Part shown: one piece after another, positions 31,387 to 61,708 of the stretch
Position numbering within the stretch: the first letter of the stretch is position 1
How the letters are laid out: the number at the start of each line of letters is the position of its first letter
Source of the DNA: a virus
Taxonomy: Duplodnaviria > Caudoviricetes
Length of the DNA stretch: 64,000 nt
IMG/VR virus record: IMGVR_UViG_3300009431_000002
Span: 1-64,000 of that record
Strand: one strand, 5' to 3'
The notes under the pieces: model-generated
The model's database searches: none
Seen by the model: the letters and a program-made list of their open reading frames with translations, nothing else
Told to the model about the DNA's origin: nothing
Program-made: the position numbers and the translations under genes

Positions 31387-31879
31387 ACCGCGCGCCTACG
31401 CAGAGGAGACCACGGTCTCCGTGAGCCGCACCCGCGAGCAGATCAACAAGCTGCTCCGCACCTGGGGCTGCGAGCAGATCCTGTGGATGGACAACTTCAA
31501 GGAGGGCAGCGCTCTCCTGCAGCTCGTCTGGATCACGGAGAAGGGCCTGCAGATCCCCCTCGAGTACTCCATCAGCCTGCCCACCGAGGCGGAGATCCGT
31601 GCCGAGTACCAACGGCCGCCGACGAAGGCGCAGGTCGAGAAGCGGCGCCAGCAGCGCAACCGGGCGATGTTCCGGCTCCTGCTGCTGAAGCTGAAGGCCG
31701 ACCTCAACTGGGTCGCCGCCGGCGGCGAGGATGAGATCTCCGTCTTCCTGTCCCACGTGATCATGAACGACACCGATGGCGTGCCGATGCAGATCGGCCA
31801 GCTCGTCGGGCCGAAGCTGCTGGAGGGCTACACCGGTCACCCCGTGAAGCTGCTGGGAGGACCCCATGGCCGCGAATGA
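31379..31879 (+). CDS. Hypothetical phage protein
   Basis: YAEETTVSVSRTREQI N-terminus; coupled. Confidence 0.65.
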   Translation: MSRPRAYAEETTVSVSRTREQINKLLRTWGCEQILWMDNFKEGSALLQLVWITEKGLQIPLEYSISLPTEAEIRAEYQRPPTKAQVEKRRQQRNRAMFRLLLLKLKADLNWVAAGGEDEISVFLSHVIMNDTDGVPMQIGQLVGPKLLEGYTGHPVKLLGGPHGRE

Positions 31880-32837
31880 CGACCGCATCATCACCCTGAA
31901 CGCCGGTGTCGGCCGTGACTCCACGACGATGCTGTGCCTGCTGTGCGAGGGCCTGCTCGAGGTCAAGGACCTGGGCACCCTCACCCCGCTCGACATCGAC
32001 GTCGTGGTGTTCAGTGACACCGGCTGCGAGTGGCCCCACACCTACGAGCTGGTGCCGCGACTGCACAAGCTGTGCACCGACAACGGCATCCCCTTCATCG
32101 TGCTGGCCAAGCCGCCGTGCAAGCCGGACCCCAAGGACTACTCCTGGATCACCCACGAGCCGTGGACCGACAAGATCGGCGGCGGCGCCTACCACTACCG
32201 CCTCGGCGTCCTCGAGGACTACCGCAGCCGCGAGACCGTGGTCTCCCTGGGCAAGGGGGACTGCACGGACAACCACAAGATCCAGCCGATCCGTAGGTTC
32301 GTGCAGGATCTGTCCGTGCAGCGCTTCGGGCTCACCAACCGCCAGTACTCCGGCGAGGTCCGCAAGGGCGTCCGGGACCCCCACGTCAACCTCATCGGCA
32401 TCGCCGCCGACGAGACGCGCCGGCTGTCCAACGCCGGCCGCAGCCCGGCCTACGTCACCGAGCTCTACCCGCTGGTAGACATGGGCATCCCCAAGGACGA
32501 CGAGGCGGCCGTGCTCTCTCAGTGGGGGCTCAACGGCGTCAAGAAGTCCGGGTGCTTCGTGTGCCCGTACCAGCCCGCCGGCTGGTGGTGGGCGCTGTCC
32601 GTGAGCGAGCCGGAGCTGTGGCAGCGCGCCGTCGAGTACGAGACCACGGCGCTGGCCCGCAACGCCAAGATGAGCGTCGCCAACGTCAAGGTCGCCGGCG
32701 ATCTCCTCACCATCGACCAGGTCGTCCATCGCTGGCGCGAGCGGAACCCGCGCGCTACTGTCGAGGCCGTCCTGGCCAAGAGCTACACCCAGTGCCCCGC
32801 CGAAGCGCGGGCTGACATGAAGGGCCTCTCCGAATGA
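31866..32837 (+). CDS. PAPS reductase-like PP-loop family protein
   Basis: AGVGRDST (PP-loop-like), FSDTGCEW, IGIAADE..R, YPL, KSGCFVCPY. Confidence 0.75.
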   Translation: MAANDDRIITLNAGVGRDSTTMLCLLCEGLLEVKDLGTLTPLDIDVVVFSDTGCEWPHTYELVPRLHKLCTDNGIPFIVLAKPPCKPDPKDYSWITHEPWTDKIGGGAYHYRLGVLEDYRSRETVVSLGKGDCTDNHKIQPIRRFVQDLSVQRFGLTNRQYSGEVRKGVRDPHVNLIGIAADETRRLSNAGRSPAYVTELYPLVDMGIPKDDEAAVLSQWGLNGVKKSGCFVCPYQPAGWWWALSVSEPELWQRAVEYETTALARNAKMSVANVKVAGDLLTIDQVVHRWRERNPRATVEAVLAKSYTQCPAEARADMKGLSE

Positions 32838-33700
32838 CCCCGTTCCTGAAGTGGTTGGGCGGCAAGGCCCGACACATCGACACCATCCACAAGCACCTGC
32901 CCGAGCCCGCCGAGCACATGCACCGCCGCTTCCGGGTCTACGAGCCCTTCGTGGGCGGCGGGGCCGTGACGCTCTCGCTGCTGGACCGCCTGTCCGCCGC
33001 CCGGCCGCCGGTCATCCGCGACCTCAACCCCGCCCTGATCCTCACCTGGGAGGCGATCCGCGACGACGTGGAGGGCGTCATCGACGAGCTCGAGCAGCTG
33101 TGTCGCAACATGACCAAGGAGGCCTACGAGCTGGCCCGCGCCGACTTCAACCACGCCAAGAAGTTGATCCCCGACCTCATCGTCCGGCCGTCGGTCGTGC
33201 TGGCAGCGTACTTCGTGTACCTCAACAAGACCGGCTTCAACGGGATGTACCGGGAGAACAAGCAGGGCAGCTTCAACGTGCCGTGGGGCCAGAGGGAGAA
33301 CGCGGGCGTGTACCGCGCCTCCCACCTGCGCGCCGTGAGCCGGGCCCTCGACGACGCGGGCGCCATCATCGAGTGTGGCCCCTTCCAGGGCGTGCTGCCC
33401 GAGATCGGCAGCGACAGCTTCATGTACCTGGACCCGCCGTTCCCGCCGACGGCCGGCAAGGAGGGGTTCACGGACTACACGCCGGGCGGGTTCAACGACA
33501 TGGACCAGCTGGAGCTGGCCGTGTTCCTGCGCAGCGCCACAACGCAGGGCGGGAAGTGGATGCTCTCCATGCCCGACCAGCCCTACGTCCGGGAGTTGTA
33601 TCGTGGCTACAACTTCCACGAGATCCAGGCCCGCCGGGCCAACAGCGCAACCCCCGAAGGTCGAGGTGTGGTCAGCGAGCTGCTGATCACGAACTACTGA
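32834..33700 (+). CDS. dam: Dam-family N6-adenine DNA methyltransferase
   Basis: FLKWLGGK, EPFVGGG, FNGMYRENKQGSFNVP, YLDPPF, ELLITNY. Confidence 0.92.
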   Translation: MTPFLKWLGGKARHIDTIHKHLPEPAEHMHRRFRVYEPFVGGGAVTLSLLDRLSAARPPVIRDLNPALILTWEAIRDDVEGVIDELEQLCRNMTKEAYELARADFNHAKKLIPDLIVRPSVVLAAYFVYLNKTGFNGMYRENKQGSFNVPWGQRENAGVYRASHLRAVSRALDDAGAIIECGPFQGVLPEIGSDSFMYLDPPFPPTAGKEGFTDYTPGGFNDMDQLELAVFLRSATTQGGKWMLSMPDQPYVRELYRGYNFHEIQARRANSATPEGRGVVSELLITNY

Positions 33701-44674: not shown

Positions 44675-44703
44675 ATGGTACACACGCTGTACTTACCTGT
44701 CAA
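44675..44703 (-). promoter_or_regulatory. Promoter TTGACA-17-TACCAT with GTACA-N5-TGTAC operator in the spacer
   Basis: Read directly; operator at 44678-44692. Confidence 0.7.
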
Positions 44704-45995
44704 GGCGGTCCTGCGAGCGAGTACCCCAACGCCTCCACGACGTCGGGATCGGCCGCGTCGCGCATCGCCTTGAGCAGCGGCTGGCTGTACCGACGCATGT
44801 ACTCCCCCTCGAGGTAGTACGCTCGCCGGGTGAAGGTCTTGTCTTCCAGCCCGTCGTCGCGGGAGAAGTGCTCCAACATCGGCGCAAGGCACCTGTCCGG
44901 CAGACGGACCACGCCGGGCACTGCTTCGCGCCCGAAGAGCGCCGCGACCCGCCGGAGCTCGACGCCCGGGTTGCGCAGGAGATCCTCGTAGCGCACGACC
45001 GCGGCGCGCTTGCCCTCGAAGAAGTCGAGCCAGGCACGGTGCAGCTTGTTCCAGCGCCCCATCCACTTCGTGACCGCTTCGGGCGTCACCGAGACCCGAC
45101 GCTTCGTGAGGCGTTCGGCCCATTCGGCGAAGCTGATGCACCAGGCGTAGGGGTTCTTCACGCTCAAGATGAAGCCGAGGTCGCCGCGGTCGTGGGCCGC
45201 CTTCACGTTGGTCTGCTCGTACTGCGAGGTGAACCCACGCGCGACGAGCGGCGACCAATCCCAATCGAGCTCCGCCGGCGCGTGGTGCTTCCCGCCGAGC
45301 GGGTTGGAGAGGACGCGGGCGTGGACGTACTCCTCGAGGAGCAGCTTGAGGAGGTTCGTGCCGGACCGCTCGATGCCGTACTGCTTGACGTAGAGCTTGC
45401 GTCCGCGGGGCTGGCTGCAGTTCGGGCCCGTGATGACCCGCCGGACGTCGGCGATCTCGGGACCAGTCGGCGGCTGCACCCGCCACCAATCTGTTCGCCA
45501 CCGACCGTTCGTGGTCTGCCCACCATCTGTTGCGAAGCGGCCGACGAGGTCCGCGCCGAAGTCGTAGTACCGCCGCTCAGCGTTGTCCAGCGCGATGACG
45601 CCGCCGCTGCGCACGGCGAGGAGTGCTGCCGCGAGGCAGCGGACGCGACGACGGCCATCCACGAGTGCGAAGTCAGCGCCCTGCAGGCCGACTGCGTCCA
45701 CGCCGGCCATCGGGTAGGCTGTCCGGTCGCCCCACACCGGCACGTGCTGCAGGCGGACCTGCTGGGGCAGCCTGGGGCGAAGGTCCTTGACGGCGGGAGC
45801 ATGGTGTTCGACCGACGACCACCCCTTCGTCCGGCGGGCGAACCACAGGGTCGACTCGCCGGAGCCCCACTCCAGGCCAACCCAGTTGCCCGTGTCCCAG
45901 GACTCGAAGAGGTCGATGAACTCGCGGGTCAGCCACGGCTCTCCGGGGCCACCGGTCAGCGCTTTGTACCTGTGCTTCGGGTTGATCCACGTCAT
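44700..45995 (-). CDS. Class I SAM methyltransferase fused to sulfotransferase
   Basis: LEWGSGEST...ALVDGRRR...ALDN; then YGIERSGTN, VKNPYAW, VRYEDLLRNP. Confidence 0.75.
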   Translation of the reverse strand: MTWINPKHRYKALTGGPGEPWLTREFIDLFESWDTGNWVGLEWGSGESTLWFARRTKGWSSVEHHAPAVKDLRPRLPQQVRLQHVPVWGDRTAYPMAGVDAVGLQGADFALVDGRRRVRCLAAALLAVRSGGVIALDNAERRYYDFGADLVGRFATDGGQTTNGRWRTDWWRVQPPTGPEIADVRRVITGPNCSQPRGRKLYVKQYGIERSGTNLLKLLLEEYVHARVLSNPLGGKHHAPAELDWDWSPLVARGFTSQYEQTNVKAAHDRGDLGFILSVKNPYAWCISFAEWAERLTKRRVSVTPEAVTKWMGRWNKLHRAWLDFFEGKRAAVVRYEDLLRNPGVELRRVAALFGREAVPGVVRLPDRCLAPMLEHFSRDDGLEDKTFTRRAYYLEGEYMRRYSQPLLKAMRDAADPDVVEALGYSLAGPP

Positions 45996-46675
45996 CGGGG
46001 CACCCGGCAGTCGTACCCAAGGGCCCGCGCGAGCTGCGGCAGGGCCGCATCGCTCCGAAGGCGGCGACGCAGGGCCACGACATCCGCTGCAGAGCAAGTC
46101 TTCCACGGCTCGAGACGGCTCGGGTCGAGCGGCCGGTGGCCTCCCATCGCCTTGGTCGCCCACGGGTCGTCTGTCCTGAAGTGCCGGTGGCAGCCTGCGA
46201 AGGTGCGGCAGTCCTGGAGGTGGAAGGCGCGACGCAGCTGCCGCTGGATCGTCGCCGGGTCGGTGACCAGGGTCTCGAAGCGGACGACCTGAACATTCGC
46301 GTGCTGCCGAAACCGCAAGAGCATCCGCGCGGCGTAGGCCCACCGGCTCGGCGGGACGTAGAACTTGCCGCCGCTGGCGGGGTGGCGAGACAGCAGCACG
46401 GCCTTGGGGTCCCGGACCATGAACACGACGCCCACGCCAGCGGCCAGGGCCTCCCTGACGTCCTCCACCGACTCCGCGAGGTCCACCCAGTGCTTGGAGA
46501 CCATCCGCGGGTACTTCAGCGCCACGCACGACGACGGTGAGATGTGAACGTCCGGGACACACCGCCACTCGTGCTCCCCGGGTACGTGGGCGATGTCCCG
46601 GTACCCGGCGCCGATCAAGAAGTGCATCAGGGTGTTGCCCGAGCGAGCGCACCCGGTGGTGACGATCCGCCTCAC
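45992..46675 (-). CDS. Sulfotransferase family protein
   Basis: TGCARSGNT (PAPS loop), MVRDPKAVLLS, VRFETLVTDP. Confidence 0.8.
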   Translation of the reverse strand: MRRIVTTGCARSGNTLMHFLIGAGYRDIAHVPGEHEWRCVPDVHISPSSCVALKYPRMVSKHWVDLAESVEDVREALAAGVGVVFMVRDPKAVLLSRHPASGGKFYVPPSRWAYAARMLLRFRQHANVQVVRFETLVTDPATIQRQLRRAFHLQDCRTFAGCHRHFRTDDPWATKAMGGHRPLDPSRLEPWKTCSAADVVALRRRLRSDAALPQLARALGYDCRVPR

Positions 46676-47986
46676 CTACTTCTTCCCGAAGAACTCCTTC
46701 ACCACCTTCGGCCGCATGGCGACAGCGACCTTGCGGTTCGACAGGCACATCGAGCAGAAAGGTTGCTTCAGCCGGTCCTGCTGCAACAGGCGGTTGAGGA
46801 AGTGGGGCCGCAGGGTGTCGTGGAACTGCGGGAAGTTGTCGTAGTCGCGGCCGAGGTGCAGCGCCGTGTTCCGGCCGTTGGGGCAGATGTCGACCTTCCC
46901 CTCGCGCAGCGTGAACTTCGCGCAGTTGCAGTGCGCCGGCAACGACTTCGGCACCGGGACGACGGGGCCGTTCACCCGCTGCTCCCGTTCCGAGATGACG
47001 ATGTGCTTGGCCTCGCCGTACTTGCCGGCCTTCGGGAAGGCCTTGCGCACCGCGGCCACCTGGGCCTTGTTGCCGGAGTACTCCGAGATCCGAACGAGGT
47101 CGGCCATCTCCAGCACGGGCGCGTACTTCCTGGTGGTCTTCTCGGTGAAGGGCAGCACCGCGGTGAGGATGTCCACCTGGTCCGTCAGGCCGGACTCCTT
47201 GAGCCGCTTGACGCCGGCGGCGATGTACTTCCACATCAGAGGCTCGCCGCCGCAGAGCGTGATGACGCGGTAGTGGTAGCCCGACTGCTTGCTGTAGTCG
47301 ATGAAGCGGTCGACCTCGGCCAACGACATGTGGTGGTTGGGAGAGCCCTCCATCCACTCGCGGACGATGCAGGGCACGCACCCACCCGAGCAGGTCGTGG
47401 TGGCCATCAGCGTCATCTTCAGCACGGGTTTCCTGGCGAACCAGGTGCTCCCCGGGCCACGCTGGAGCTCCAGGCCCTGCAGGGCGCAGAACTCGTCCAC
47501 GGCGTGGATCACGCCTGGGAACCAGCCCGCGTAGTCGTGGCCCGCGAGCCACCCACCGGGCTTGACCTTGCCGTACCATGCCCGGAGGTCGGCCGAGACG
47601 TCCTTGTAGCCGTGGCCGGCGTCCACGAAGACCATGTCGAGGGTCCGGTCTCCGATCATCTCCGCCGCGTCCACCGACGGCATGTGCATCGGCCGCACGT
47701 CGCACTTGGCGTCGCCGCGCGTGATCTCCAGGAAGGTCGCCTTGGCGTCGCGGTGCTCCTGGACCGACTCGTCCCAGGAGTCCACGGCGTAGAGCACCGC
47801 GGGAGGAACGGCCTCGAGCATGTAGCTCGTGCTCAGCCCAGAATGGACCCCCACCTCGGCCATCGTCCGCACGCGCTTCTCCCGGACGAACTTGGCGTAC
47901 CACTCCCCCTCCTTGGGGAAGAACCACCCCATGACCTCGCGTCCGCGGAACTGCCTGCTGCCTCGACTCTTGAAGTTGATCGCCAC
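46676..47986 (-). CDS. Class I SAM methyltransferase fused to radical SAM domain
   Basis: EVGVHSG...FVDAGH...GGWLAGHDY; then CSGGCVPC (CxxxCxxC), GGEPL, C-terminal Cys cluster. Confidence 0.8.
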   Translation of the reverse strand: MAINFKSRGSRQFRGREVMGWFFPKEGEWYAKFVREKRVRTMAEVGVHSGLSTSYMLEAVPPAVLYAVDSWDESVQEHRDAKATFLEITRGDAKCDVRPMHMPSVDAAEMIGDRTLDMVFVDAGHGYKDVSADLRAWYGKVKPGGWLAGHDYAGWFPGVIHAVDEFCALQGLELQRGPGSTWFARKPVLKMTLMATTTCSGGCVPCIVREWMEGSPNHHMSLAEVDRFIDYSKQSGYHYRVITLCGGEPLMWKYIAAGVKRLKESGLTDQVDILTAVLPFTEKTTRKYAPVLEMADLVRISEYSGNKAQVAAVRKAFPKAGKYGEAKHIVISEREQRVNGPVVPVPKSLPAHCNCAKFTLREGKVDICPNGRNTALHLGRDYDNFPQFHDTLRPHFLNRLLQQDRLKQPFCSMCLSNRKVAVAMRPKVVKEFFGKK

Positions 47987-47995
47987 GTCGTCCTC

Positions 47996-49825
47996 CTACC
48001 AGGCGTCCTTGCTGGAGACCCTGGGTCCAGTCACGCGATACTGGCACAGGAAGCCGTCGTGCGCACGAGCCTTCCGGTGCTTCTGCCTGTACCGCTTGTA
48101 GAAGTCGTAGTCGTGGCCCTTCTTCCAGACACCCTGTCCGGTGGACCACTCCTCGTCGTACATCGTCTCCAGCGCCCACGCAGTGCGGAACGCCACGCAG
48201 CCGCTGTGCGGGGCGAACCGGCGCCCCTCCTTGCCGTCCCATCGATGCTCCCCGACGCGCTCCCCGCCGTGGTCGATCAGCCGTGCGCTGCCCCAGAACA
48301 AGCCCAGCTGCGGGTCCTTCTCGAACGCCTCGACGGTGATCTTCAGCCGGTCGGGCAAGGAGATGTCGTCGTCGTCGTTGTTGGCGATGAGCGGGGCTCG
48401 CGCGTGCAACAGCACCTGGTTGCGCTTCCACGACAGGTTGCTGTTGGGGTAGTGGAACCACACGATCCGCGGGTCCCTGAAGGACTCCAGCACCTTCCGC
48501 ACCTTCGGGTCTGTGCTGTCGTCGATGATGATGAGCTCCCAGTCGCGCATCGACTGCGCCAGGATCCCCTCGATGGCCTGGAACAGGAACCGCGGCCGGT
48601 TGTGCGAGACCATCATCACCGTGACCTTCGGCGCGTTGGTCGCCGTCCGCAGGCCGTGCCGCCGTCGCCAGATATTGCCGAGGCGCATTAGGTCCTCCTT
48701 CTCCCAGTTCTGGTACATGTCCAAGCTCACCTCGGGGGCGTCGTCGGCGGCGAGCTCCTCGGCGAGCGCCCTTCGCCACTCGTCGAGGTCGTGCGGAGGC
48801 ACGAACACTCCGTGGTGCGGAAGGGCTTCGCGGATCCCAGGTAGGTCTGAGGCGATGACCCTCGCGCCCCCGATGGCCGCCTCCACAGCGGCCATGCCGT
48901 AGGTCTCGGTCTCCGAGGGCATGAGGTGAACCCGGCTGCGCGAGAAGAAGCGCCGCAGGTCCCGGGCCGGCCCCACCATCTGGACGTTCGGCAACACCTC
49001 CAGGCCCTCGACCTGGGTGCCGTAGCCGCCGCGGGCGATGAGGAAGTGCTGGTCGTTGAACTCCCGGGCCAGTTCCCGGACGATGTTGCCGCCCTTCGAC
49101 CCGGAGGGGTTGATCATGGTCACGCTGTCCCGCTTCGGCGCCAGTCCCCCGAGGATGCGCGACGTGTCGATGACTGGACGGACGATCACGCTGTCCTTCG
49201 GCTTCCCGCACTCCTCCCACAGCGAGTACGAGTTGAAGATCCATCCTGCGGGCTTGTACCCCTGTGAAAGCGGATGGTCGTAGCTCCACTTCACGTGGCA
49301 GTACAGGTAGACCGGCACGGTGCCGAGCTCGAGGAACGGATGCGCAGCCTCGAACTGCGCCACGACCACGTCCGGCCGCATCCGCGCGAGCAGGGGCTTG
49401 ACGTAGTGCCGTTCCCATCTTGGGAACCCGGAGTGCAGGAGCACCCCCTCCATCGACTCCACTCCGCCAGGGCCCTCGCCCTCGACTGCGACGACATCGA
49501 AGCCGTCCCGGACCAGGGCCTGGGCCAGCCCCATCATCGCGGTCTCGCCCCCGGCGTAGACGTAGGGGGGCAGCCTCGGGGACACGCACAGGACCAGTGG
49601 CTTGGTCTTGGGGGGCGCACCCGTCAGCAGGAGCATCGCGGCGCCCCGCCGTCCAGGCTTGACGTTCAGCGGGCGCCCTTCGATCTCGCCCATCCTCGTC
49701 ACGACGTTGCCTGCGAAGCGCGTGTAGCGCTCGGCGGGTACAGGGCTCGTCGGGGCCAGGACTGCGACGACGTCGCTGAACGTCTCGTAGATCCTATCCG
49801 AGATCAGGTGGATGTCGTCAGCCAC
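47996..49825 (-). CDS. GT4 (GT-B) + GT2 (GT-A) bifunctional glycosyltransferase
   Basis: GGET, ETYGMAAVEAAIGG..VIASDLPG; then VMMVSHNRP...WELIIIDD...NDDDDISLPDRL. Confidence 0.85.
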   Translation of the reverse strand: MADDIHLISDRIYETFSDVVAVLAPTSPVPAERYTRFAGNVVTRMGEIEGRPLNVKPGRRGAAMLLLTGAPPKTKPLVLCVSPRLPPYVYAGGETAMMGLAQALVRDGFDVVAVEGEGPGGVESMEGVLLHSGFPRWERHYVKPLLARMRPDVVVAQFEAAHPFLELGTVPVYLYCHVKWSYDHPLSQGYKPAGWIFNSYSLWEECGKPKDSVIVRPVIDTSRILGGLAPKRDSVTMINPSGSKGGNIVRELAREFNDQHFLIARGGYGTQVEGLEVLPNVQMVGPARDLRRFFSRSRVHLMPSETETYGMAAVEAAIGGARVIASDLPGIREALPHHGVFVPPHDLDEWRRALAEELAADDAPEVSLDMYQNWEKEDLMRLGNIWRRRHGLRTATNAPKVTVMMVSHNRPRFLFQAIEGILAQSMRDWELIIIDDSTDPKVRKVLESFRDPRIVWFHYPNSNLSWKRNQVLLHARAPLIANNDDDDISLPDRLKITVEAFEKDPQLGLFWGSARLIDHGGERVGEHRWDGKEGRRFAPHSGCVAFRTAWALETMYDEEWSTGQGVWKKGHDYDFYKRYRQKHRKARAHDGFLCQYRVTGPRVSSKDAW

Positions 49826-50558
49826 GGTCCAGCTCCAGCACCTTCCGGACGCCCCACGGCCGCGGGGCCACGCCGTCCCGTTTGATGGTCTCGAACATCT
49901 CGTTGTTGCGGTGGTGGTCCCCGGCCGCGGCCGCGGACGGATGGTCTTGGTGGATGATGAGCGGGTCGTCGATCCAGCTGATGTCGCCGACCTGGTCGGC
50001 CTTCCAGACGGCGTGGTCGTCTTCGGCGCCCCAGCCGACGAAGCGTTCGTCGACGCCGGAGATCGCAGCCCACAGGGCACGCTCCGCGCCCATCGACATA
50101 CCGTTGGCACACCGAGACCAGGGGTTGGGCTGCGACGACGCGAAGTAGGCGCCCCAGTCCGACGAGAGGTCCTCACCCTCGGCGGCCTCGCGGCCGCGCC
50201 GGTGCTCGCACATGAGCATCAGATTCGGCCGGAGCCGGGCCTCGTAGGTCTCGACGAAGTGGGGGGCTGCGACGGCGTCGACGTCCAGCACGACGACGTG
50301 GCGACTCCGGCTCACGCGGATGCCGCAGTTGATGCTCGCGGCCCGACTGAACCGCGGGTCCCGCCACTCCACACGGAGGAACGTGAAACCGAAGGACCTG
50401 GTGATGCCGCGGATGTTGTCGAGGTGGTCTGTCGCGCTGGACAGGTCCGAGACGACGACCTCCTCAGGAGGCACCGTCTGGCGCGCCAAGGCGTTGAGGC
50501 AGTTCCACAACCGGGCGCCGCCACGGTCGCGCTGCGGGATGACGACCGTGGTGCCCAT
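49818..50558 (-). CDS. GT2 glycosyltransferase with GT7 C-terminal-like motif
   Basis: VVIPQR, FSRAASINCG, LDVD, DERFVGWGAEDD. Confidence 0.85.
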   Translation of the reverse strand: MGTTVVIPQRDRGGARLWNCLNALARQTVPPEEVVVSDLSSATDHLDNIRGITRSFGFTFLRVEWRDPRFSRAASINCGIRVSRSRHVVVLDVDAVAAPHFVETYEARLRPNLMLMCEHRRGREAAEGEDLSSDWGAYFASSQPNPWSRCANGMSMGAERALWAAISGVDERFVGWGAEDDHAVWKADQVGDISWIDDPLIIHQDHPSAAAAGDHHRNNEMFETIKRDGVAPRPWGVRKVLELDRG

Positions 50559-50840
50559 CTACTCCGGCGGGACCTCCTGCTCCTGGACGTTCTGGAGCTT
50601 CGTCAGCCAGTCGTCCAGTCCCTCGAACATCGGGAAGCGCTCCCCGAGCCAGCAGGCGATGAACACGTGCGCCTCGCGCATGTCGCGCTCCGACGTCGTC
50701 AGCTCGCCGGCGAAGCGGTCGTTCAGCGCCTGGGCCAGCCGGATGTGCAGGTCACCCTGCACCGCGATGAAGGAGGGGAGGAGATCCCACCGGATCTCGA
50801 CGTTCCCCTCCTTGCGGCTACTGGGCCTGACGAGCAGCAC
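50559..50840 (-). CDS. Hypothetical protein
   Basis: ORF track; start uncertain. Confidence 0.55.
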   Translation of the reverse strand: MLLVRPSSRKEGNVEIRWDLLPSFIAVQGDLHIRLAQALNDRFAGELTTSERDMREAHVFIACWLGERFPMFEGLDDWLTKLQNVQEQEVPPE

Positions 50841-51162
50841 TGGGCCAGTCCACCAGCTTGAAGTCGAGCTCGAAGCCCGGCACGCGGTACGCCATCTCCT
50901 GGATGCGGTCCACGAGCGGCACCGGAATGGTCTGGTCCTCGCGGTGGTACAGCTCCAGCTCCAGGTGCTGCGTGACCTCGCCGGTCTCCGGGTCCAGGTC
51001 GCAGGTGAACCGGCAGCGCTTCACCAGCTGCAGCGCTTGGCCGTCGACGGTGATGACCGTCTGGTCCGGCGTGGCGCCGACGAGGATCTGCACCGGGTGG
51101 TTCTGGGAGGCGGTGGGGCGGCGGCCTGGCCGCTGTACTCCTTGGTCGATTCGACGTACCAT
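50818..51162 (-). CDS. Hypothetical protein
   Basis: GGAG RBS. Confidence 0.6.
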   Translation of the reverse strand: MVRRIDQGVQRPGRRPTASQNHPVQILVGATPDQTVITVDGQALQLVKRCRFTCDLDPETGEVTQHLELELYHREDQTIPVPLVDRIQEMAYRVPGFELDFKLVDWPSAARQAQ

Positions 51163-51172
51163 CGTGGTCTCC

Positions 51173-51529
51173 TCACATCACCGCGAGGTCGACGTCGTCG
51201 CCGACCTTCATCGTGATGTCGTTCATGTGCAGCAGGCAGTGCTCGACGTCCTCCACCTTCTTCAGGGGGATGGCGTCCTTGAGGAAGCGGCGGAAGGTGA
51301 TCCGGTCGCCCGGCTCCACCGGCGGCGTCAGGGTCACGCCCTTGTCGGTGAGCTGGCCGGGGCCGACGCGGACCACGCGGCCGACGCCCTCCATGACGTG
51401 CTCGCGGCCGACGTCCTGGTTGGGCCGGTACAGCCCGCCGCGGGTCTTCTCGCCGCGCGGCTCCACGGAGACGAGCACGTAGGGGCCCATCGGGCGGATG
51501 ACGTCGGGGTGGATGTCAGAGCTGTCCAT
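51173..51529 (-). CDS. groES: GroES/Cpn10 co-chaperonin
   Basis: IRPMGPYVLV, EKTRGGLYRP mobile loop, GRVVRVGPG, VEPGDRI. Confidence 0.88.
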   Translation of the reverse strand: MDSSDIHPDVIRPMGPYVLVSVEPRGEKTRGGLYRPNQDVGREHVMEGVGRVVRVGPGQLTDKGVTLTPPVEPGDRITFRRFLKDAIPLKKVEDVEHCLLHMNDITMKVGDDVDLAVM

Positions 51530-52929: not shown

Positions 52930-53429
52930 GTCCGCCTCCTTGCCCTCCGGACCTTGGAGGGTCGGGCACCCGCCCGTTCTCGCCACTCCTTGCTGCCGAT
53001 CCGCACCAGGTTGCCAGACTCCATCGCCTCGGCCCGGAGCTTCTCGGCCGCCGCCCCTCGGCGGCGCAGCCGCGACACCTGGGCCTGATTCGTCGTCGGG
53101 CCCAGCGGCCGGACAGCGATGGGCCCCATCGACGTCCAGTCGTGCAGCACGGCCTTCGCCTGCTGCTCGCGCTCCTTGATCTGGTCCTTCCGGAACGGGT
53201 AGAGCGCGTTACTGAAGTCCTCCAGTGCCTGTTGCACGTGCTTGCCCTCCTTGGGCGTCACGATTGCCTGGGTCAAGAGCCTGGCTTCCGTCCGCTGGAT
53301 CTCCTGCTTCCGTTGCCAGACCAACACCATGAGCGCCTCCTGCCAGCCCCCAGGATCGGGCATGCCGGCGAACTTGTCGTAGAAGATGTTCGCCAGTGCC
53401 CAGCCGACAGGAGTCGTTAGCCATTTCCC
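52926..53429 (-). CDS. -1 frame extension (gpT-like) of the tail assembly chaperone candidate
   Basis: Open -1 frame entered at G GGA AAT: GKWLTTPVGWALANIFYDK...; no RBS-linked start near its beginning. Confidence 0.6.
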   Translation of the reverse strand, partial: GKWLTTPVGWALANIFYDKFAGMPDPGGWQEALMVLVWQRKQEIQRTEARLLTQAIVTPKEGKHVQQALEDFSNALYPFRKDQIKEREQQAKAVLHDWTSMGPIAVRPLGPTTNQAQVSRLRRRGAAAEKLRAEAMESGNLVRIGSKEWRERAGARPSKVRRARRRT

Positions 53430-54298
53430 AGTGTCTCCACGTTGATGGCGTCGCGGATGCGGTCGTCGAACCACCCGTGGTTGAGCCAGATGTCCTGGAG
53501 GATGACGAACGGCCGCGTGAGGAGGTCGAAGAACTTCTTCTCGAAGGTCTCCTCGTCCACCTCGCCGTTCGACTTGCGGTGCTCGAGGATCTCCTCGTCG
53601 TTGATGCGGGTCACCGACAGCGCCACCTGCACCATGCCCATGACGGTGTCGTGGTACATCTGGCTCGGCCGTTCGCCGACAGTGCTCTTGACCACGTCCC
53701 AGGTGTAGCGCTTGGCGAACAGGTCCTCCTGCCCGCTCAGAGCCCGGAAGGTCACCTCGAACTTGCCCTCGACGATGGGGACACGCTGGATGCCCCCGCG
53801 GCCCACCACGTAGTGCCGGATGTCGATGGGCTCGCACCGGGCCTCGATGGCCTCCCTCACCTCGGGGTTGTCGAGCTGGTCGGTGCGCTGCTGCATCAGC
53901 ATCTCGAAGAACTTGGGGTCGACGTCGGGGCGCGGCTTGTCACCCTCCTCCGCCTGCTCTTCGACCGCGGCGTCCGCCTGCTGCGCTGGCTGCTCCTCAC
54001 CCTCGTCCGGGGGCGGCGAGGCCGCGGCCGGCCCGGAGCCGAGACCGCCTGTGCGGATGGAGTCGCGGAGCTCGTCGGCCGTGAACGCCTCCTCCTGCTC
54101 CGGCATCATCGGGGGCGCGCCTCGGTGGGCGTGGTCGGTCAGGACCGGCGTGCCCGCGAGCGGCTTCGCGTGGCCGAGCGGGACACCGCCCTCCTGGCCT
54201 CCGCGTTGCGTCGCTGCGGCGATCCGCTGCTTGTAGTTCTCGACAGCCGCGTCGTCTGCGCCGTCGCCGAGTTCCAGAACTTGTCGCTTTGTCGCCAC
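53417..54298 (-). CDS. Putative tail assembly chaperone (gpG-like)
   Basis: FEVTFRALSGQED-type core; ends CTG GGA AAT GGC TAA with an X XXY YYZ slippery site. Confidence 0.55.
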   Translation of the reverse strand: MATKRQVLELGDGADDAAVENYKQRIAAATQRGGQEGGVPLGHAKPLAGTPVLTDHAHRGAPPMMPEQEEAFTADELRDSIRTGGLGSGPAAASPPPDEGEEQPAQQADAAVEEQAEEGDKPRPDVDPKFFEMLMQQRTDQLDNPEVREAIEARCEPIDIRHYVVGRGGIQRVPIVEGKFEVTFRALSGQEDLFAKRYTWDVVKSTVGERPSQMYHDTVMGMVQVALSVTRINDEEILEHRKSNGEVDEETFEKKFFDLLTRPFVILQDIWLNHGWFDDRIRDAINVETLGNG

Positions 54299-56092: not shown

Positions 56093-56367
56093 CGCGCCTC
56101 CAGGCCCGATTCCATGAAGCGACTCAGCGTGCGGCCCCACTGCGTCTCCTGCACACGCTCGTGCTCGAGGATGTCGAAGGCCAGACTCCCCAGCGTTCCG
56201 CTACGGAAGTCCGTGTTGATGTAGGTCTTGACGCGGGCGAGGTTGCGGGCCAACCGGAACCCGTCCCGCACGTCCGGCTTCGCCGGCGTCTGGTACCTGC
56301 CGACTCGAGCGGCTCTGCGGAGGGTCGGCGCGACCTTGGGGTTAGGCTGGACGGGCACGGCTGTCAC
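56089..56367 (-). CDS. Hypothetical protein
   Basis: GTGA coupling. Confidence 0.55.
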   Translation of the reverse strand: MTAVPVQPNPKVAPTLRRAARVGRYQTPAKPDVRDGFRLARNLARVKTYINTDFRSGTLGSLAFDILEHERVQETQWGRTLSRFMESGLEAR

Positions 56368-57412
56368 TCCTCAGCGGCGCCAGTTCCTTGTAGGCGTCCG
56401 CGTGGTCGTTCACCTTGTTGAGTCCGAACTGGGCCTCGCCGCGAGCGTACAGACGCTGGCGACGCGCCGGATCCGGCGCGTAGCCCCGCAGAGCGGGGAT
56501 GACCTGCGTGGGGTCGGTGCTGGCCACGTAGATGCCATCGGGTCCGAGGGTCTCGCGGGACGACCCAGAGTCGAGCGCGATGACCTCCTTCTTCGCCCCC
56601 ATCGCCAGCACGGCCTCGGTGCGGACGCTCTCGCTGCGGTCCCAGCTCAGTTCGAGCACGGCGTCCGCGGCGTTGATGAGCATCTCCTCCGGCTTGCTCT
56701 CGACCACGGTGACCCTGGGCCCAGCGGGCTGCGCCAGCGAGATGACCTGCTCCGCGGCCTCCTCGGCCGGGTCCGCGATGATGAGCTGGTAGCCCTCGTC
56801 CGACGAGGCGAGGTTGTTGATCACCGGCGTCAGGACCTCGATCTCCTCGACCGTCGGTTCCATGACGACCAGCGTCGTCTCCGCCGGCTGTACGCCGAGG
56901 TCGGCGCGGGCTTGAGCAGCCGGCCGCTGCTGCACCTTCTGGATGGGCGGCCGCAGGACCTTGATGCGTGGCTCCTCGATGCCGGCCGCCATGAGGGCGT
57001 TCTTCCCCCGGAAGTCCGGGACGACCCACAGCGAGATGCGCGAGTAGGCCAGTCGCTTGATGACGCCGCGCCGGACTGGACGGGCCCCGTAGCGGTGGGC
57101 CAGCATCCGCTGGCGCGTACCGTACAGGCCCATCACGCCGAGGCGCGACAGCTCCATGGAGTGGAAGATCACCAGGTCCGGGTTGATGAGCCGCGTCCGC
57201 TGCAGGATGTCGGCTCGCTCCAGCTGGAGACGCCTGTGGACCTCGATGGTGCGGTCGAGCACCCCGATGGCCCGCTTCCCAGCTTGACGCTGCTGGACAC
57301 GGTCGCCGAACCTCTCCAGGAAGATGTGCTCGTTGACCGCGTCGTTCTCGATCAGCGTCCGGACGAAACGGATGTGGGGGCCCCGCCGTGGGCCGATGTG
57401 AAGGAAACGCAT
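56364..57412 (-). CDS. GT4-like (GT-B fold) glycosyltransferase with degenerate catalytic motif
   Basis: MRFLHIG, PDLVIFHS, AADAVLELS..SESVRTEAVLAMGAKKEVIA. Confidence 0.65.
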
Positions 57413-57902: not shown

Positions 57903-57931
57903 ATGGTACGCACGCGCAATCCAACTGTCAA
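57903..57931 (-). promoter_or_regulatory. Promoter TTGACA-17-TACCAT (leaderless)
   Basis: Read directly. Confidence 0.75.
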
Positions 57932-59165: not shown

Positions 59166-59910
59166 CCCCCTGAAGGCCACCTACGACGACCTCCTCCGCC
59201 AGCTGAACCGCGGCATCATCCCCGATGGGTTCCAGGCCAAGGCGCGCTGTCCCCTCTGCCACGGCTCGAACACCATCCGCAAGCAGATCGGCTACGACGA
59301 CGAGAAGAAGAAGCCCGTCACGGCGCGCGTCGGCTGCCCGTGCATCGAGCGCCAGATCATCGCCGAGTACCACCGCGAGCAGCGGAAGCTCGCCAAGGCC
59401 GTCTCCTCGCCGGCGACGCCCGAGAAGAAGGGCCCGCGGCAGCCCACCAGGAAGGTGCTGGAGCGCCGCGCCCGGCTGCAGAACACCGTCGACTCCCGCA
59501 AGAAGAAGCTGGAGGGCGCCGAGCAGCTCGTCGCCGACCTCGAGGAGCAGGTCGAGCTGGGCACGGTCGAGATGCGCGAGGAGATGAACGAGCTTCAGGA
59601 GGAGCTGGGCCGGCTCAACGACGCGACCGGGCACGCCTACAAGGTCCACGACGAACTGGAGGAGACGGCCAAGGCCATCCAGGAGCAGCTGGCCCGCGTC
59701 CACGAGGCGCTGCGCGGCCTGGCGTCGGACAGGGAGGAGGTCAACGGCAAGGTGGAGGCGGTCGTCGCCCAGATCGACGGGGTCAAGGAGCGGCGCGCCG
59801 TGGACCTCGGCAGGGCCCGCGCCAGGATGGAGAACGCCCGCCGCAACTACGACACGTCGTTCGGCAAGCTCCAGAGCCTCGACAGGATGATCGATGCCGG
59901 CAACGCGTGA
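59155..59910 (+). CDS. Zn finger plus long coiled-coil protein
   Basis: CPLC...CPC; heptad repeats. Confidence 0.7.
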   Translation: MLADPLKATYDDLLRQLNRGIIPDGFQAKARCPLCHGSNTIRKQIGYDDEKKKPVTARVGCPCIERQIIAEYHREQRKLAKAVSSPATPEKKGPRQPTRKVLERRARLQNTVDSRKKKLEGAEQLVADLEEQVELGTVEMREEMNELQEELGRLNDATGHAYKVHDELEETAKAIQEQLARVHEALRGLASDREEVNGKVEAVVAQIDGVKERRAVDLGRARARMENARRNYDTSFGKLQSLDRMIDAGNA

Positions 59911-61708
59911 GGAGATCACGCACTTCCACTTCTACTCCGGCATCGGCGGGTGCGCCATCGGCATGCAGGGCGGGCACGCCCGGGTCGGCCGCATGTACGC
60001 GTACCCCCACCTCCTGGGCGGCGTCGAGTCCGACCTGAAGCGCTGCTACGAGTTCGAGAAGCTGTCCGGCGTCCCCGCGGCCTGCTACGACCTCTTCACC
60101 GCCGATCAGTACGAGCTGTTCCACGGCCACGCGCCGCCGCGCAGCTGGCGGGAGGTCTCGGTCGACGACATCCGCAAGGCCGCCCGCGGCCGCCACCCCG
60201 ACGTAGTGTTCACCTCGCCGCCCTGCAAAGGCTTCAGCGGGCTGCTGAACTCCAAGGCCGCGGCCTCGCCGAAGTACCAGGCCCTCAACGAGCTGGTCTG
60301 CCGCGCCATCTTCCTGGCCATGGAGGCCTGGGGCGACGACCCACCCGCCTTCTTCCTGCTGGAGAACGTGCCGCGCATCGAGACCCGGGGCGGTCCCCTG
60401 CTTGAACAGGTGGAGCAGCTGCTGTGGCACTACGGCTACGCCGTCACCCGGAGCCGGCACGACTGCGGCGAGCTCGGCGGGATCCCCCAGCACCGCAACC
60501 GCTTCATGCTGGTCGCGCGGAACATGGAGAAGATCCCGCCCTTCCTGTACGAGCCGCCGAAGCGCAGGGTCAAGGCGGTCGGCGAGCTCCTCAGCACGCT
60601 GCCCATGCCCGAGGACCCGGCCGCTGGCCCCATGCACACGCTGTCCCGACTGGAGTGGCGCACGTGGGTCCGGCTGGCGCTCATCCAGGCCGGCAAGGAC
60701 TGGCGCTGCCTCGAAGGGTTGGACTGGGAGAACTACGGCATCGTGCCGGGCGAGGTGGCCTGGCACCGCGGCATCCTGGGTGTCCAGCGCTGGGACCAGC
60801 CGTCGGGGACCGTGACCAGTCGCGGCTCCGTGACCTGCGGTCGGTTCGCCGTCGCAGACCCCCGCTCCCACACGTCCCACCGCGGCCGTGGCAAGTACCG
60901 CATCACCCGGATGGACGAGCCTGCGGGCACGGTCATCGCGGCCAACGGCACCGGCAACGGCGCGTTCGCCCTCGCCGACCCTACGCCGCACCGGGACATC
61001 GGACGGTACCAGCCCTACGGTGTGCTCCGCGAAGACCAGCCCGGCCACACCGTCACTGGGCAGGCCGACGTCGGCGCAGGCCCCTACTCCATCGCGGACC
61101 CGCGGCTCCGCGGCGACAACTTCAACAACATCTACGCCGTGGTCCACTTCGGGGACCCCGCACACGCCGTCACAGCCGGAATGTCGCCGAGCTCCGGCGG
61201 CCAGGCCGTCGGCGACCCGCGCGTCGGCCGGTCCATCGCCCGCCGCAAGGACTTCCGCAACTCCCGGCTCTACGGCGTCTGTCGGTACACAGATCCGTCG
61301 CTGGCCGTCATCGCCCACATGAAGCACGACAACACCCAGGGATCCGTCGCCGACCCCCGCATCCCTGCTGAGCGCGACCGGCCGGACCCCGTGCCGATCA
61401 TCATCAGCCTGGACGGGACGTGGCACCGTCCCTTCACGACCTGGGAGCTCGCGGCCCTGCAGGGCTTCCCGGTGCTCGACGCGGACAACGAGCCCCTCGT
61501 CTTCGAGGGACGCTCGCACTCCATGTGGCGCGAGTGGATCGGCAACGCCGTCCCACCGCCCGCCGCGGAGGCCATCATGTCCGTCATCGCCGAGACCATC
61601 CTCATGTCGAGGCTCGGCGTGCAGGGCCACTTCAACCTGTTCGACCCGGTCTGGGTCCGCGAGATCAAGACCGCACTGAGCGTGGAGACCGCCCATGGAC
61701 CCCAATGA
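59894..61708 (+). CDS. C5 cytosine DNA methyltransferase with repeated ADPR modules
   Basis: FYSGIGG, SPPCKGFS, LENV, PQHRNR, LQGFP, IGNAVPP. Confidence 0.92.
   Translation: MPATREEITHFHFYSGIGGCAIGMQGGHARVGRMYAYPHLLGGVESDLKRCYEFEKLSGVPAACYDLFTADQYELFHGHAPPRSWREVSVDDIRKAARGRHPDVVFTSPPCKGFSGLLNSKAAASPKYQALNELVCRAIFLAMEAWGDDPPAFFLLENVPRIETRGGPLLEQVEQLLWHYGYAVTRSRHDCGELGGIPQHRNRFMLVARNMEKIPPFLYEPPKRRVKAVGELLSTLPMPEDPAAGPMHTLSRLEWRTWVRLALIQAGKDWRCLEGLDWENYGIVPGEVAWHRGILGVQRWDQPSGTVTSRGSVTCGRFAVADPRSHTSHRGRGKYRITRMDEPAGTVIAANGTGNGAFALADPTPHRDIGRYQPYGVLREDQPGHTVTGQADVGAGPYSIADPRLRGDNFNNIYAVVHFGDPAHAVTAGMSPSSGGQAVGDPRVGRSIARRKDFRNSRLYGVCRYTDPSLAVIAHMKHDNTQGSVADPRIPAERDRPDPVPIIISLDGTWHRPFTTWELAALQGFPVLDADNEPLVFEGRSHSMWREWIGNAVPPPAAEAIMSVIAETILMSRLGVQGHFNLFDPVWVREIKTALSVETAHGPQ

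Follow-up and report, generated by a model that had tools for sequence, protein, structure and literature searches.

Introduction

The cytoplasmic multidomain enzyme A064R of chlorovirus PBCV-1 builds a capsid glycan by means of two rhamnosyltransferase domains and one methyltransferase domain. Among phages, the cluster O (Corndog-like) mycobacteriophages carry one O-methyltransferase gene followed by three tandem glycosyltransferase (GT) genes, which decorate the capsid and the tail tube (Freeman et al. 2023, as summarised in PMC11600133). Phage glycosylation is known to affect restriction evasion when it is on DNA, serotype when it is on the host surface, and antibody recognition of virions in mycobacteriophages. 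Sulfotransfer_3 genes have been listed as auxiliary metabolic genes (AMGs) in OM43-phage genomes and Synechococcus phage S-SRM01 (PMC10580990) and in glacier-ice viruses (PMC8290583); the function of such single genes in phages was explicitly called unclear (PMC10580990, PMC8290583). In the literature searched, we found no description of a sulfated phage glycan or of a phage operon combining GTs with sulfotransferases, and sulfation has so far no tie to restriction evasion, serotype or antibody recognition. Here we describe a five-gene cassette (gA–gE, 44700–50558, minus strand) of an uncultured Caudoviricetes virus, located in the first 64 kb (the window) of the 201,921-bp IMG/VR virus record IMGVR_UViG_3300009431_000002, which is rated complete by CheckV.

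The initial annotation, made from the letters of the window, had read the five genes as GT2, GT4 plus GT2, methyltransferase plus radical S-adenosylmethionine (SAM), sulfotransferase, and methyltransferase plus sulfotransferase. Pfam matches, gene junctions and codon scoring confirmed this reading, coordinates included. Judged by its gene content, the locus is a predicted phage glycosylation cassette extended by sulfation and by a radical SAM step. We consider it likely that its products form a soluble line drawing on host precursors to assemble a glycan, which is then O-methylated and O-sulfated and undergoes one additional radical step. In the reaction order that we propose, three GT domains (GT-A of gA; GT-B and GT-A of gB) would add sugars from host nucleotide-sugars; the two Methyltransf_24-type domains, located at the N-termini of gC and gE (gC-N and gE-N), would use SAM to O-methylate these sugars; one further radical step on a sugar would fall to the radical SAM domain of gC; and gD and the C-terminal domain of gE (gE-C) would transfer sulfate from host-made 3′-phosphoadenosine 5′-phosphosulfate (PAPS). 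This would yield an oligo- or polysaccharide that is O-methylated and O-sulfated, and hence anionic. Its acceptor, the least secure step of the proposal, would be a phage-made protein, probably on the virion surface.

Gene structure of the cassette

The phage DNA has a GC content of ∼67%, and long false frames are abundant in its six-frame lists of open reading frames (ORFs). Whole-genome gene calling by codon usage gave 223 genes. The five genes of the cassette are translationally coupled, and their coding status is backed by both the GC content at third codon positions and codon scoring:

49818–50558, minus strand: gA, 246 aa, predicted GT2/GT-A glycosyltransferase
47996–49825, minus strand: gB, 609 aa, predicted GT4/GT-B N-terminal half and GT2/GT-A C-terminal half
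46676–47986, minus strand: gC, 436 aa, Methyltransf_24 domain and small radical SAM domain, both predicted
45992–46675, minus strand: gD, 227 aa, predicted PAPS-type sulfotransferase
44700–45995, minus strand: gE, 431 aa, predicted Methyltransf_24-like class I methyltransferase and PAPS-type sulfotransferase

The ATG of gA directly abuts the TAG of the upstream ORF, and gA and gB overlap by 8 nt. gC is preceded by a 9-nt spacer with GGAGGA; its TAG is followed, with zero gap, by the GTG of gD, which in turn overlaps gE through ATGA. One 1629-aa ORF (44700–49589) was considered as a giant multidomain protein and rejected, as it is mostly an Arg/Gly-rich out-of-frame reading, an artefact of the high GC content. 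The real gene within it comprises the last 431 codons only, starting from MTWINPK; these have coding character and correspond to gE.

Predicted glycosyltransferases gA and gB

gA matches Glycos_transf_2 (PF00535; 4e-9, 37.1 bits) and Glyco_transf_7C (1.4e-3); it contains one DVD motif of the DxD type and one β4GalT-type WGAEDD motif. The best solved relative of gA is the chondroitin polymerase K4CP (5e-9), to both domains of which it aligns, the WGxEDD region included. The N-terminal half of gB matches Glyco_trans_1_4 (PF13692; 1.3e-13, 51.9 bits) and PF00534 (41.4 bits), with its GT4/GT-B domain spanning residues ∼80–380 and containing the EX7E motif ETYGMAAVE; the C-terminal half matches Glycos_transf_2 (PF00535; 2e-17, 64.1 bits), and its GT2/GT-A domain (residues ∼395–580) contains DDS and DDDD motifs. 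gB also matches phrog_26352 (2.5e-31). Against the PDB, its C-terminal domain matches K4CP residues 358–551 (5e-12), SpsA (1.7e-8) and heparosan synthase (5e-6). Both proteins thus combine Pfam matches above cut-off with the DxD or EX7E motifs of GT2 and GT4 enzymes. The likeness to K4CP and heparosan synthase is, at sequence level, that of GT-A enzymes in general, as SpsA matches gB too, and does not allow the sugar specificity to be derived.

The best NCBIfam matches of gA and gB, all sub-threshold, are GTs for extracellular polysaccharide (EPS), colanic acid and teichuronic acid, and their best solved relatives, K4CP and heparosan synthase, are capsule polymerases. Both points suit a different explanation of the cassette, namely that it remodels an envelope glycan of the host: working on the cytoplasmic face, the soluble enzymes would lengthen a lipid-linked or nascent O-antigen, capsule or EPS and add methyl and sulfate caps, and transporters of the host would export the product. 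The surface of the infected cell would then be changed, for example excluding other phages or stopping the re-adsorption of progeny. Similar gene sets in large cyanophages were interpreted in this way, as cell-surface modification (PMC12801897). On the evidence presented here and below, we regard envelope remodelling as somewhat unlikely, though as the strongest of the alternatives and not far behind a phage protein as acceptor.

Methyltransferase and radical SAM domains of gC and gE

In the proposed soluble line, the sugars added by gA and gB would be modified by gC and gE. The N-terminal domain of gC (residues ∼20–170) matches Methyltransf_24 (PF13578; 2.3e-17, 64.2 bits) and is of the O-methyltransferase type. 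The radical SAM domain (residues ∼185–436) contains CSGGCVPC (CxxxCxxC) and CGGEPL (GGEP), both read from the translation, and a C-terminal Cys cluster, CNC...C...CSMC; gC also matches Fer4_12 with 23.2 bits, above the cut-off of 22. In NCBIfam, gC has weak radical SAM matches to MoaA, viperin and twitch-domain models; no significant SPASM match was found in Pfam. By Atlas language-model features, the radical SAM half resembles radical SAM clusters of ∼260 aa, mostly viral (score 0.96); the Atlas clusters nearest to it are 66–96% Radical_SAM.

A HMMER search with gE against 1.84 billion representatives gave 2974 matches, which are cleanly divided by domain: proteins of ∼170–220 aa cover residues 1–175, and proteins of ∼230–260 aa cover residues 200–430. 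The two families were aligned domain by domain; a global MAFFT alignment of gE with 149 matches mixed both of them. The N-terminal domain of gE (residues 1–190) has no direct Pfam match; it contains a motif I, EWGSGEST, whose E42-x-G44-x-G46 is invariant in the family, and 43 of 51 homologues match Methyltransf_24 (PF13578). The AlphaFold2 model (predicted local distance difference test score, pLDDT, 95.1) is most similar in VIA-align to the methyltransferase-like structure 3cvo (Z 15.9), followed by many O-methyltransferases. gE-N is thus modelled as a Methyltransf_24-like class I SAM methyltransferase fold.

Sulfotransferase domains of gD and gE

gD scores 26.2 bits with Sulfotransfer_3, just below the cut-off of 27. 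In a collection of 5.8 billion proteins it has six homologues (29–40% identity), five of which match PF13469. The 5′-phosphosulfate-binding (PSB) loop of gD is TGCARSGNT, and the G8, R11, S12 and G13 residues are invariant across eight aligned sequences. E34 is invariant in the family alignment, as are R88, D89, P90 and S96 of the 3′-phosphate-binding (PB) motif MVRDPKAVLLS. From this conservation, gD is predicted to be a PAPS-type sulfotransferase. In public gene calls, gD is only 211 aa long, with M17 as its first residue, and thereby loses the PSB loop (46628–46675, minus strand); judged by the homologues, the right start is the GTG abutting the stop codon of gC.

gD aligns to the C-terminal domain of gE (residues 200–431), with the same motifs present in both. 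This domain matches Sulfotransfer_3 with 33.5 bits, above the cut-off of 27, and contains YGIERSGTN (PSB), GGKHH and SVKNPYAWCIS (3′-PB, with Lys replacing Arg). Among 66 homologues, Sulfotransfer_3 is matched by 42 and Sulfotransfer_1 by 22; the family conserves KQYGxxRSGTN, GxKH and KxPYAWxxS, and its K15, G18, R21, T24 and N25 are at least 90% conserved across the 66 sequences. The AlphaFold model of gE-C, built on the family alignment, has a pLDDT of 93.5. All top 50 Foldseek matches in the PDB are PAPS sulfotransferases, and VIA-align gave Z 14.5 with SULT1C3 (2reo), the root-mean-square deviation being 3.5 Å over 190 aligned residues. The glycopeptide sulfotransferase Teg12 (Z 11.7) is in the top 50 fold matches, and heparan-sulfate 3-O-sulfotransferases and StaL are also in the Foldseek list. 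By its model, gE-C is a domain of PAPS sulfotransferase fold. Tyrosylprotein sulfotransferases (TPSTs) and heparan-sulfate sulfotransferases place their catalytic Glu ∼23–27 residues after the PSB Arg; E34 in gD and the K-H pair of GGKHH in gE, which are located 23–27 residues past this Arg, are candidate catalytic bases. The initial annotation had named non-functional PAPS-binding residues as a finding that would count against it; the sequences point the other way, since the 5′-PSB and 3′-PB motifs are kept in both gD and gE.

TPSTs are tied with the top fold matches of gE-C (Z 13.2 against 14.5; Foldseek ranks 2–8). They bring in the second alternative, in which the cassette modifies a protein or peptide: Tyr or Ser would be sulfated as by TPST or RaxST, the same polypeptide, from phage or host and perhaps the product of a small nearby ORF, would also be a substrate of the radical SAM and methyltransferase domains, and the GTs would act separately, giving a modified effector or a product like the ribosomally synthesized and post-translationally modified peptides (RiPPs). 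The Cys clusters at the C-terminus of gC, which are like those of peptide-modifying SPASM/twitch radical SAM enzymes (a weak NCBIfam match), are in line with it. Against it, the SPASM match is below significance, and Methyltransf_24 domains are typically O-methyltransferases of small molecules or sugars. Together with the evidence from related loci and neighbouring genes, these points make direct sulfation of a peptide or protein improbable in our view.

Related loci and wider occurrence

The assignment of the sulfotransferases to a glycan pathway comes from the loci of gD relatives. In Salinisphaera japonica YTM-1 (L027:6621–8684, NZ_AYKG01000045.1), one 687-aa protein fuses a GT4/GT1 enzyme (Glycos_transf_1, 5e-25) to a gD-family sulfotransferase (Sulfotransfer_3, 2.9e-11); two GT2 genes and another GT1 gene are found nearby. 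As it comes from a cultured bacterium, this fusion would be a convenient model for testing the activity of the gD family. One further locus, represented by L023 and L024, encodes a GT1, a second Sulfotransfer_3 protein, two GT2s, the gD relative and another GT2, followed by a polysaccharide pyruvyl transferase and by a radical SAM protein of 237 aa; the latter aligns to the radical SAM core of gC (26% over 92 aa, E 2e-6). The covered part of metagenome contig L004 has the same order: two GT2 genes precede the gD relative, and a third GT2 gene, pyruvyl transferase and a radical SAM gene (228 aa) come after it. As a separate observation, L023 and L024 represent one near-identical 8–10 kb contig that was binned into metagenome-assembled genomes of two phyla (Deltaproteobacteria and Aminicenantes), which points to a mobile element or a virus, or else to faulty binning.

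Two loci are viral or phage-like. L002, a 42.9-kb phage-like contig, encodes a tail protein (phrog_8763), then a methyltransferase, GT4, Methyltransf_24, GT2, the gD relative, GT1, an exonuclease and an SbcC-like gene. In the unrelated IMG/VR contig IMGVR_UViG_3300035698_017414 (L047:7193–10762; GC 36%), one GmaR/SunS-like GT2 gene (4e-21) is followed by the gD relative and by a second sulfotransferase, which resembles N- and 3-O-sulfotransferases of heparan sulfate (2e-34); 1.5 kb beyond it, the methyltransferase domain of gE has a homologue (7e-14). The same contig also encodes a 616-aa protein homologous to the product of the gene at 163232–165205 of the present phage (3e-65). The closest gE-N homologue (∼42–45% identity) is encoded with a HAD gene on one side and a radical SAM gene (568 aa) on the other; the same contig starts with a weak GT1-like gene.

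Because gD relatives are fused to or flanked by GTs in independent loci, we tie the sulfation to a glycan. Three of eight distinct gD-relative loci (L025, L026 and L028) have no GT as judged by crude home-made hidden Markov models, and GT co-occurrence, which the initial annotation had suggested as a check, is therefore frequent and not universal. Clear orthology among the related loci is limited to the sulfotransferase, so what recurs is a set of enzyme classes, not a conserved operon. No close relatives of the cassette or of the phage were found among cultured phages: tblastn of gB, gC, gD and gE against 50,697 phage records gave no mycobacteriophage match, and none of any kind for gD and gE. 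Likewise, IMG/VR pattern scans with gE, gB, GroES and the 293-aa neighbour described below gave no close relatives, and the word-indexed search of 5.8 billion proteins gave almost nothing for gE and gC.

These loci bear on both alternatives. The GT2 in L047 resembles SunS and GmaR, which glycosylate peptides and proteins, in favour of peptide modification; the fusion of a gD-family protein to a GT4 enzyme and the polysaccharide-type loci in which the family is found speak against it. For envelope remodelling, the bacterial loci look like surface-polysaccharide clusters, with GT1, GT2 and polysaccharide pyruvyl transferase genes, and the Salinisphaera fusion gene with its GT2 and GT1 neighbours adds to this.

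Transcription unit and neighbouring genes

The cassette is the end of a 13-kb co-directional minus-strand run that starts at 57931, and the initial annotation had placed it in a late-like block downstream of GroES and a tail chaperone candidate. The relevant features are as follows:

57903–57931, minus strand: sigma-70-like promoter candidate at the head of the run, TTGACA-N17-TACCAT
56342–57412, minus strand: possible sixth glycan gene, 356 aa, GT1/GT-B-like (Glyco_trans_1_4 2.7e-4, 21.7 bits, below cut-off; EPS_EpsE 9e-3)
53417–54298, minus strand: 293-aa frameshift gene ending ...CTG GGA AAT GGC TAA, with the heptamer G GGA AAT at 53423–53429
51173–51529, minus strand: GroES-type co-chaperonin (Cpn10, 5e-13), upstream of the cassette in the same run
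50559–51093, minus strand: two small ORFs (93 and 91 aa) between GroES and gA, no Pfam match
44675–44703, minus strand: second promoter candidate, same hexamers, overlapping the stop codon of gE
59894–61708, plus strand: C5-cytosine DNA methylase, 605 aa, with an extra N-terminal phrog_32684 domain; divergent, 2 kb from the head of the unit
genome 155190, minus strand: promoter-like site of the TTGAC-N17/18-TAnnnT class

No terminator-like sites were found on the minus strand between the promoter candidate at 57931 and position 44700, and the candidate at 44675–44703 likely marks the 3′ limit of the unit. The two promoter-like sites bracketing the 13-kb unit have identical hexamers (TTGACAG...GCGTGnGTACCAT). 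Both would give near-leaderless transcripts, as only 6–11 nt separate the −10 element from the first start codon.

The GroES gene upstream of the cassette is real, as the Cpn10 match shows. In the 293-aa gene, the −1 frame stays open for 165 further codons past the heptamer; weak Atlas leads to Phage_TAC_5 and Phage_TAC_1 (scores 0.82 and 0.79) are to be taken as leads only. By sequence it looks like a G/GT-type tail chaperone pair, though it is far from tape-measure-sized genes. As candidate morphogenesis helpers, these two neighbours provide a mild argument for a virion-related role, and the unit predicted to be co-transcribed with them speaks against envelope remodelling. The late timing was not borne out: the head and terminase genes are 65–80 kb away, and the promoter class gives no timing. 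Sites of the TTGAC-N17/18-TAnnnT class also precede the head operon (TTGACA-N18-TATAAC, genome 124076, minus strand) and several tRNA operons; the class was considered as an expression clock and rejected, as tRNA operons, head operon and cassette unit are all headed by it and early and late are not separated. The cassette does not belong to the structural module: the major capsid protein candidate (genome 115951–117072), the large terminase (125817–127586) and the endolysin are distant from it and lie outside the window. Large tail-type genes are found at 1–10 kb of the window, with tRNA arrays and replication genes between those and the cassette.

The small unannotated ORFs that flank the cassette (93, 91 and 66 aa) would suit a modified peptide; against this, no precursor-like peptide, protease or exporter was recognised.

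Genes absent from the phage genome

In the complete 202-kb genome, we found no APS kinase, ATP sulfurylase, NAD-dependent sugar epimerase/dehydratase or sugar nucleotidyltransferase, and the positive controls were detected each time. With no genes for making PAPS or nucleotide sugars, the phage must rely on its host for these and for SAM. Transmembrane segments are absent from all 27 proteins encoded between 39224 and 57896; the enzymes are thus soluble, and no flippase, polymerase, initiating transferase or Gtr-type component is encoded in the block.

These absences oppose envelope remodelling, for which the block provides no initiating phosphoglycosyl transferase, flippase, polymerase, ATP-binding cassette (ABC) transporter or any membrane protein. 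The known seroconverting systems belong to temperate phages and employ membrane proteins such as GtrABC; here, no integral-membrane transferase or flippase of the Gtr/Oac type is present among those 27 proteins, and no lysogeny context was seen around the block.

DNA had been named by the initial annotation as another possible target of the glycan. In this third alternative, the cassette would hypermodify the phage DNA with a tailored glycan against restriction, as the GTs of T-even and other phages do on hydroxymethylated pyrimidines. DNA hypermodification with a variety of glycans is a known activity of phage GT sets (Pyle et al. 2024, cited in PMC12619734). Two further points count for this explanation: the C5-cytosine methylase gene is found 2 kb from the head of the unit, and thymidine hypermodification pathways are known to include radical SAM enzymes. 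It is weakened by the search for a ThyA-family (PF00303) dCMP/dUMP hydroxymethylase, which found none in the complete 202-kb record while the control detected the family in 10 of 14 genomes. A Tet_JBP search of the genome gave no match, and its control likewise gave none. In addition, the GT2/GT4, O-methyltransferase and sulfotransferase families and their relatives are of the polysaccharide or glycoconjugate type, and we know of no sulfated DNA modification. We therefore consider DNA a very improbable target.

Second glycan cluster, host and the gene at 31866

Outside the cassette, the genome encodes a second, smaller glycan cluster and an endolysin, and the window contains one gene that had been connected to sulfur:

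genome 80026–82351, minus strand: second glycan cluster, 16 kb past the window end, at the distal end of the lysis gene run
genome 80026–81021, minus strand: GT2 of this cluster (5.6e-24)
genome 81018–81653, minus strand: class I methyltransferase of this cluster (Methyltransf_23, 1e-10)
genome 81650–82351, minus strand: Methyltransf_24 protein of this cluster (1.3e-12), paralogue of the gC N-terminal domain
genome 84472–85359: endolysin, PG_binding_1 plus muramidase, with secreted or membrane neighbours
31866–33700, plus strand: phrog_424 'PAPS reductase' gene (1.4e-25), overlapping a Dam gene (MethyltransfD12, 1.4e-45)

Phage-wide, the tally comes to ∼5 GT domains, four sugar-type methyltransferase domains, two sulfotransferase domains and one radical SAM domain. 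The second cluster, a GT2 and two methyltransferases ending the lysis gene run, is a further point for envelope remodelling. The endolysin domains and the secreted or membrane neighbours hint at a Gram-negative host, and the host is probably not an actinobacterium; the nearest terminases are those of Salmonella phage Arash and of Vibrio and Bacillus phages, at ∼26% identity.

The gene at 31866 had been proposed to be linked to the cassette through its likeness to PAPS reductase. It has no Pfam PAPS_reduct match and no informative PDB match, and it overlaps the Dam gene in a DNA-metabolism block; the proposed link is unsupported, and the gene was rejected as a PAPS supplier. A true PAPS reductase would consume rather than supply PAPS, and we see no link to the cassette. 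The pairing with Dam suggests a role in DNA modification rather than in sulfur metabolism.

Proposed acceptor of the predicted glycan

The initial annotation had inferred a sulfated, methylated glycan on the virion or on DNA. The glycan part of this inference is upheld by the domain reading, the PAPS motifs, the fold of gE-C and the GT-linked gD relatives; the virion part is not, as no tool result identifies a virion protein. By analogy with known systems, we propose tentatively, at somewhat less than even confidence, that the acceptor is a phage protein, probably on the virion. A virion protein is ranked first because cluster O provides a precedent on capsids and tail tubes and the block has no membrane or export component; further reasons are that GroES and a tail-chaperone-like gene are neighbours, that the L002 cassette directly follows tail genes, and that L047 has a GmaR/SunS-like GT. 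The promoter of the unit, being of the same sigma-70-like class as that of the head operon, is a further hint in this direction.

Several observations weigh against the proposed line and its virion target. The cassette is separated by 65–80 kb from the head genes and by 35 kb from the tail genes; and neither the capsid protein nor the other capsid and tail proteins have a distinctive Ser/Thr-rich C-terminal tail, which by itself decides nothing. The GTs are not homologous to the mycobacteriophage ones beyond one 31-aa motif, and we know of no report of virion glycosylation with a Gram-negative host, which would count if the present host is indeed Gram-negative. The bacterial gD-relative loci resemble cell-surface polysaccharide clusters (e.g. 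by their pyruvyl transferase). With regard to the chemistry, the TPSTs fit the gE-C fold about as well as sugar or small-molecule sulfotransferases do, so that sulfate could go directly onto protein; and the Radical_SAM score of gC (28.4 bits) is just below the cut-off of 29.5.

In one far-reaching form of the proposal, the glycan would be sulfated, methyl-capped and strongly anionic and would cover the particle of the phage or another of its proteins; it could even be a glycosaminoglycan-like polymer, and the L047 gene set would mark a wider, hitherto undescribed viral 'sulfoglycan' module. A glycosaminoglycan-like product is conceivable because the two transferase halves of the chondroitin and heparosan capsule polymerases are the best matches of gA and of the gB C-terminal half, which are followed by two sulfotransferases; to our knowledge, no such sulfated polymer is known from bacteria or their viruses. 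We regard this form as unlikely. If true, it would be the first sulfated glycoconjugate known from a virus of bacteria, and a sulfated virion glycan would alter charge, adsorption and recognition by hosts or predators, and would bear on how 'sulfur AMGs' are understood in viromics.

Whatever the acceptor is, the cassette and its recurrence in other viral and bacterial loci provide a concrete, testable substrate class for phage sulfotransferases; with their bacterial homologues, the gD and gE families are candidate new carbohydrate sulfotransferases.

Comparison with known systems

Like A064R, which makes a methylated glycan on a capsid protein without the host glycosylation machinery, the proposed pathway would combine virus-encoded, cytoplasmic GT and methyltransferase activities. 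Different from the present cassette, A064R belongs to a eukaryotic virus, is unrelated in sequence and works without sulfation or a radical SAM step.

E. coli K4 K4CP and Pasteurella heparosan synthase, both solved GT2 capsule polymerases, are the best solved-structure sequence matches of gA and of the gB C-terminal domain, with the generic likeness noted above. Among bacterial loci, L023/L024, L004 and L027 have, like the cassette, a gD-family sulfotransferase (28–40% identity) with the same invariant motifs, and L023/L024 likewise bring together GT2 and GT1 genes, a small radical SAM gene and a further sulfotransferase gene. Different from the cassette, the bacterial gD-relative loci have a pyruvyl transferase in place of the Methyltransf_24 domains.

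The Sulfotransfer_3 genes described as AMGs and gD/gE are of the same Pfam family (PF13469), are phage-encoded and would use host PAPS. Here, however, two sulfotransferase domains are embedded in one coupled operon with GTs, methyltransferases and radical SAM, which points to the substrate class.

Compared to the cluster O cassettes, the present one also consists of phage-encoded soluble GTs and O-methyltransferase activity in one co-directional run; both are without export machinery and both depend on host sugar donors. Homology to the O-methyltransferase and GT genes of cluster O and F mycobacteriophages was not found beyond one 31-aa (79-nt) GT-A motif, which gA and Phrappuccino gp144 have in common. 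Beyond the cluster O gene set, the present cassette adds two predicted sulfotransferase domains and one predicted radical SAM domain.

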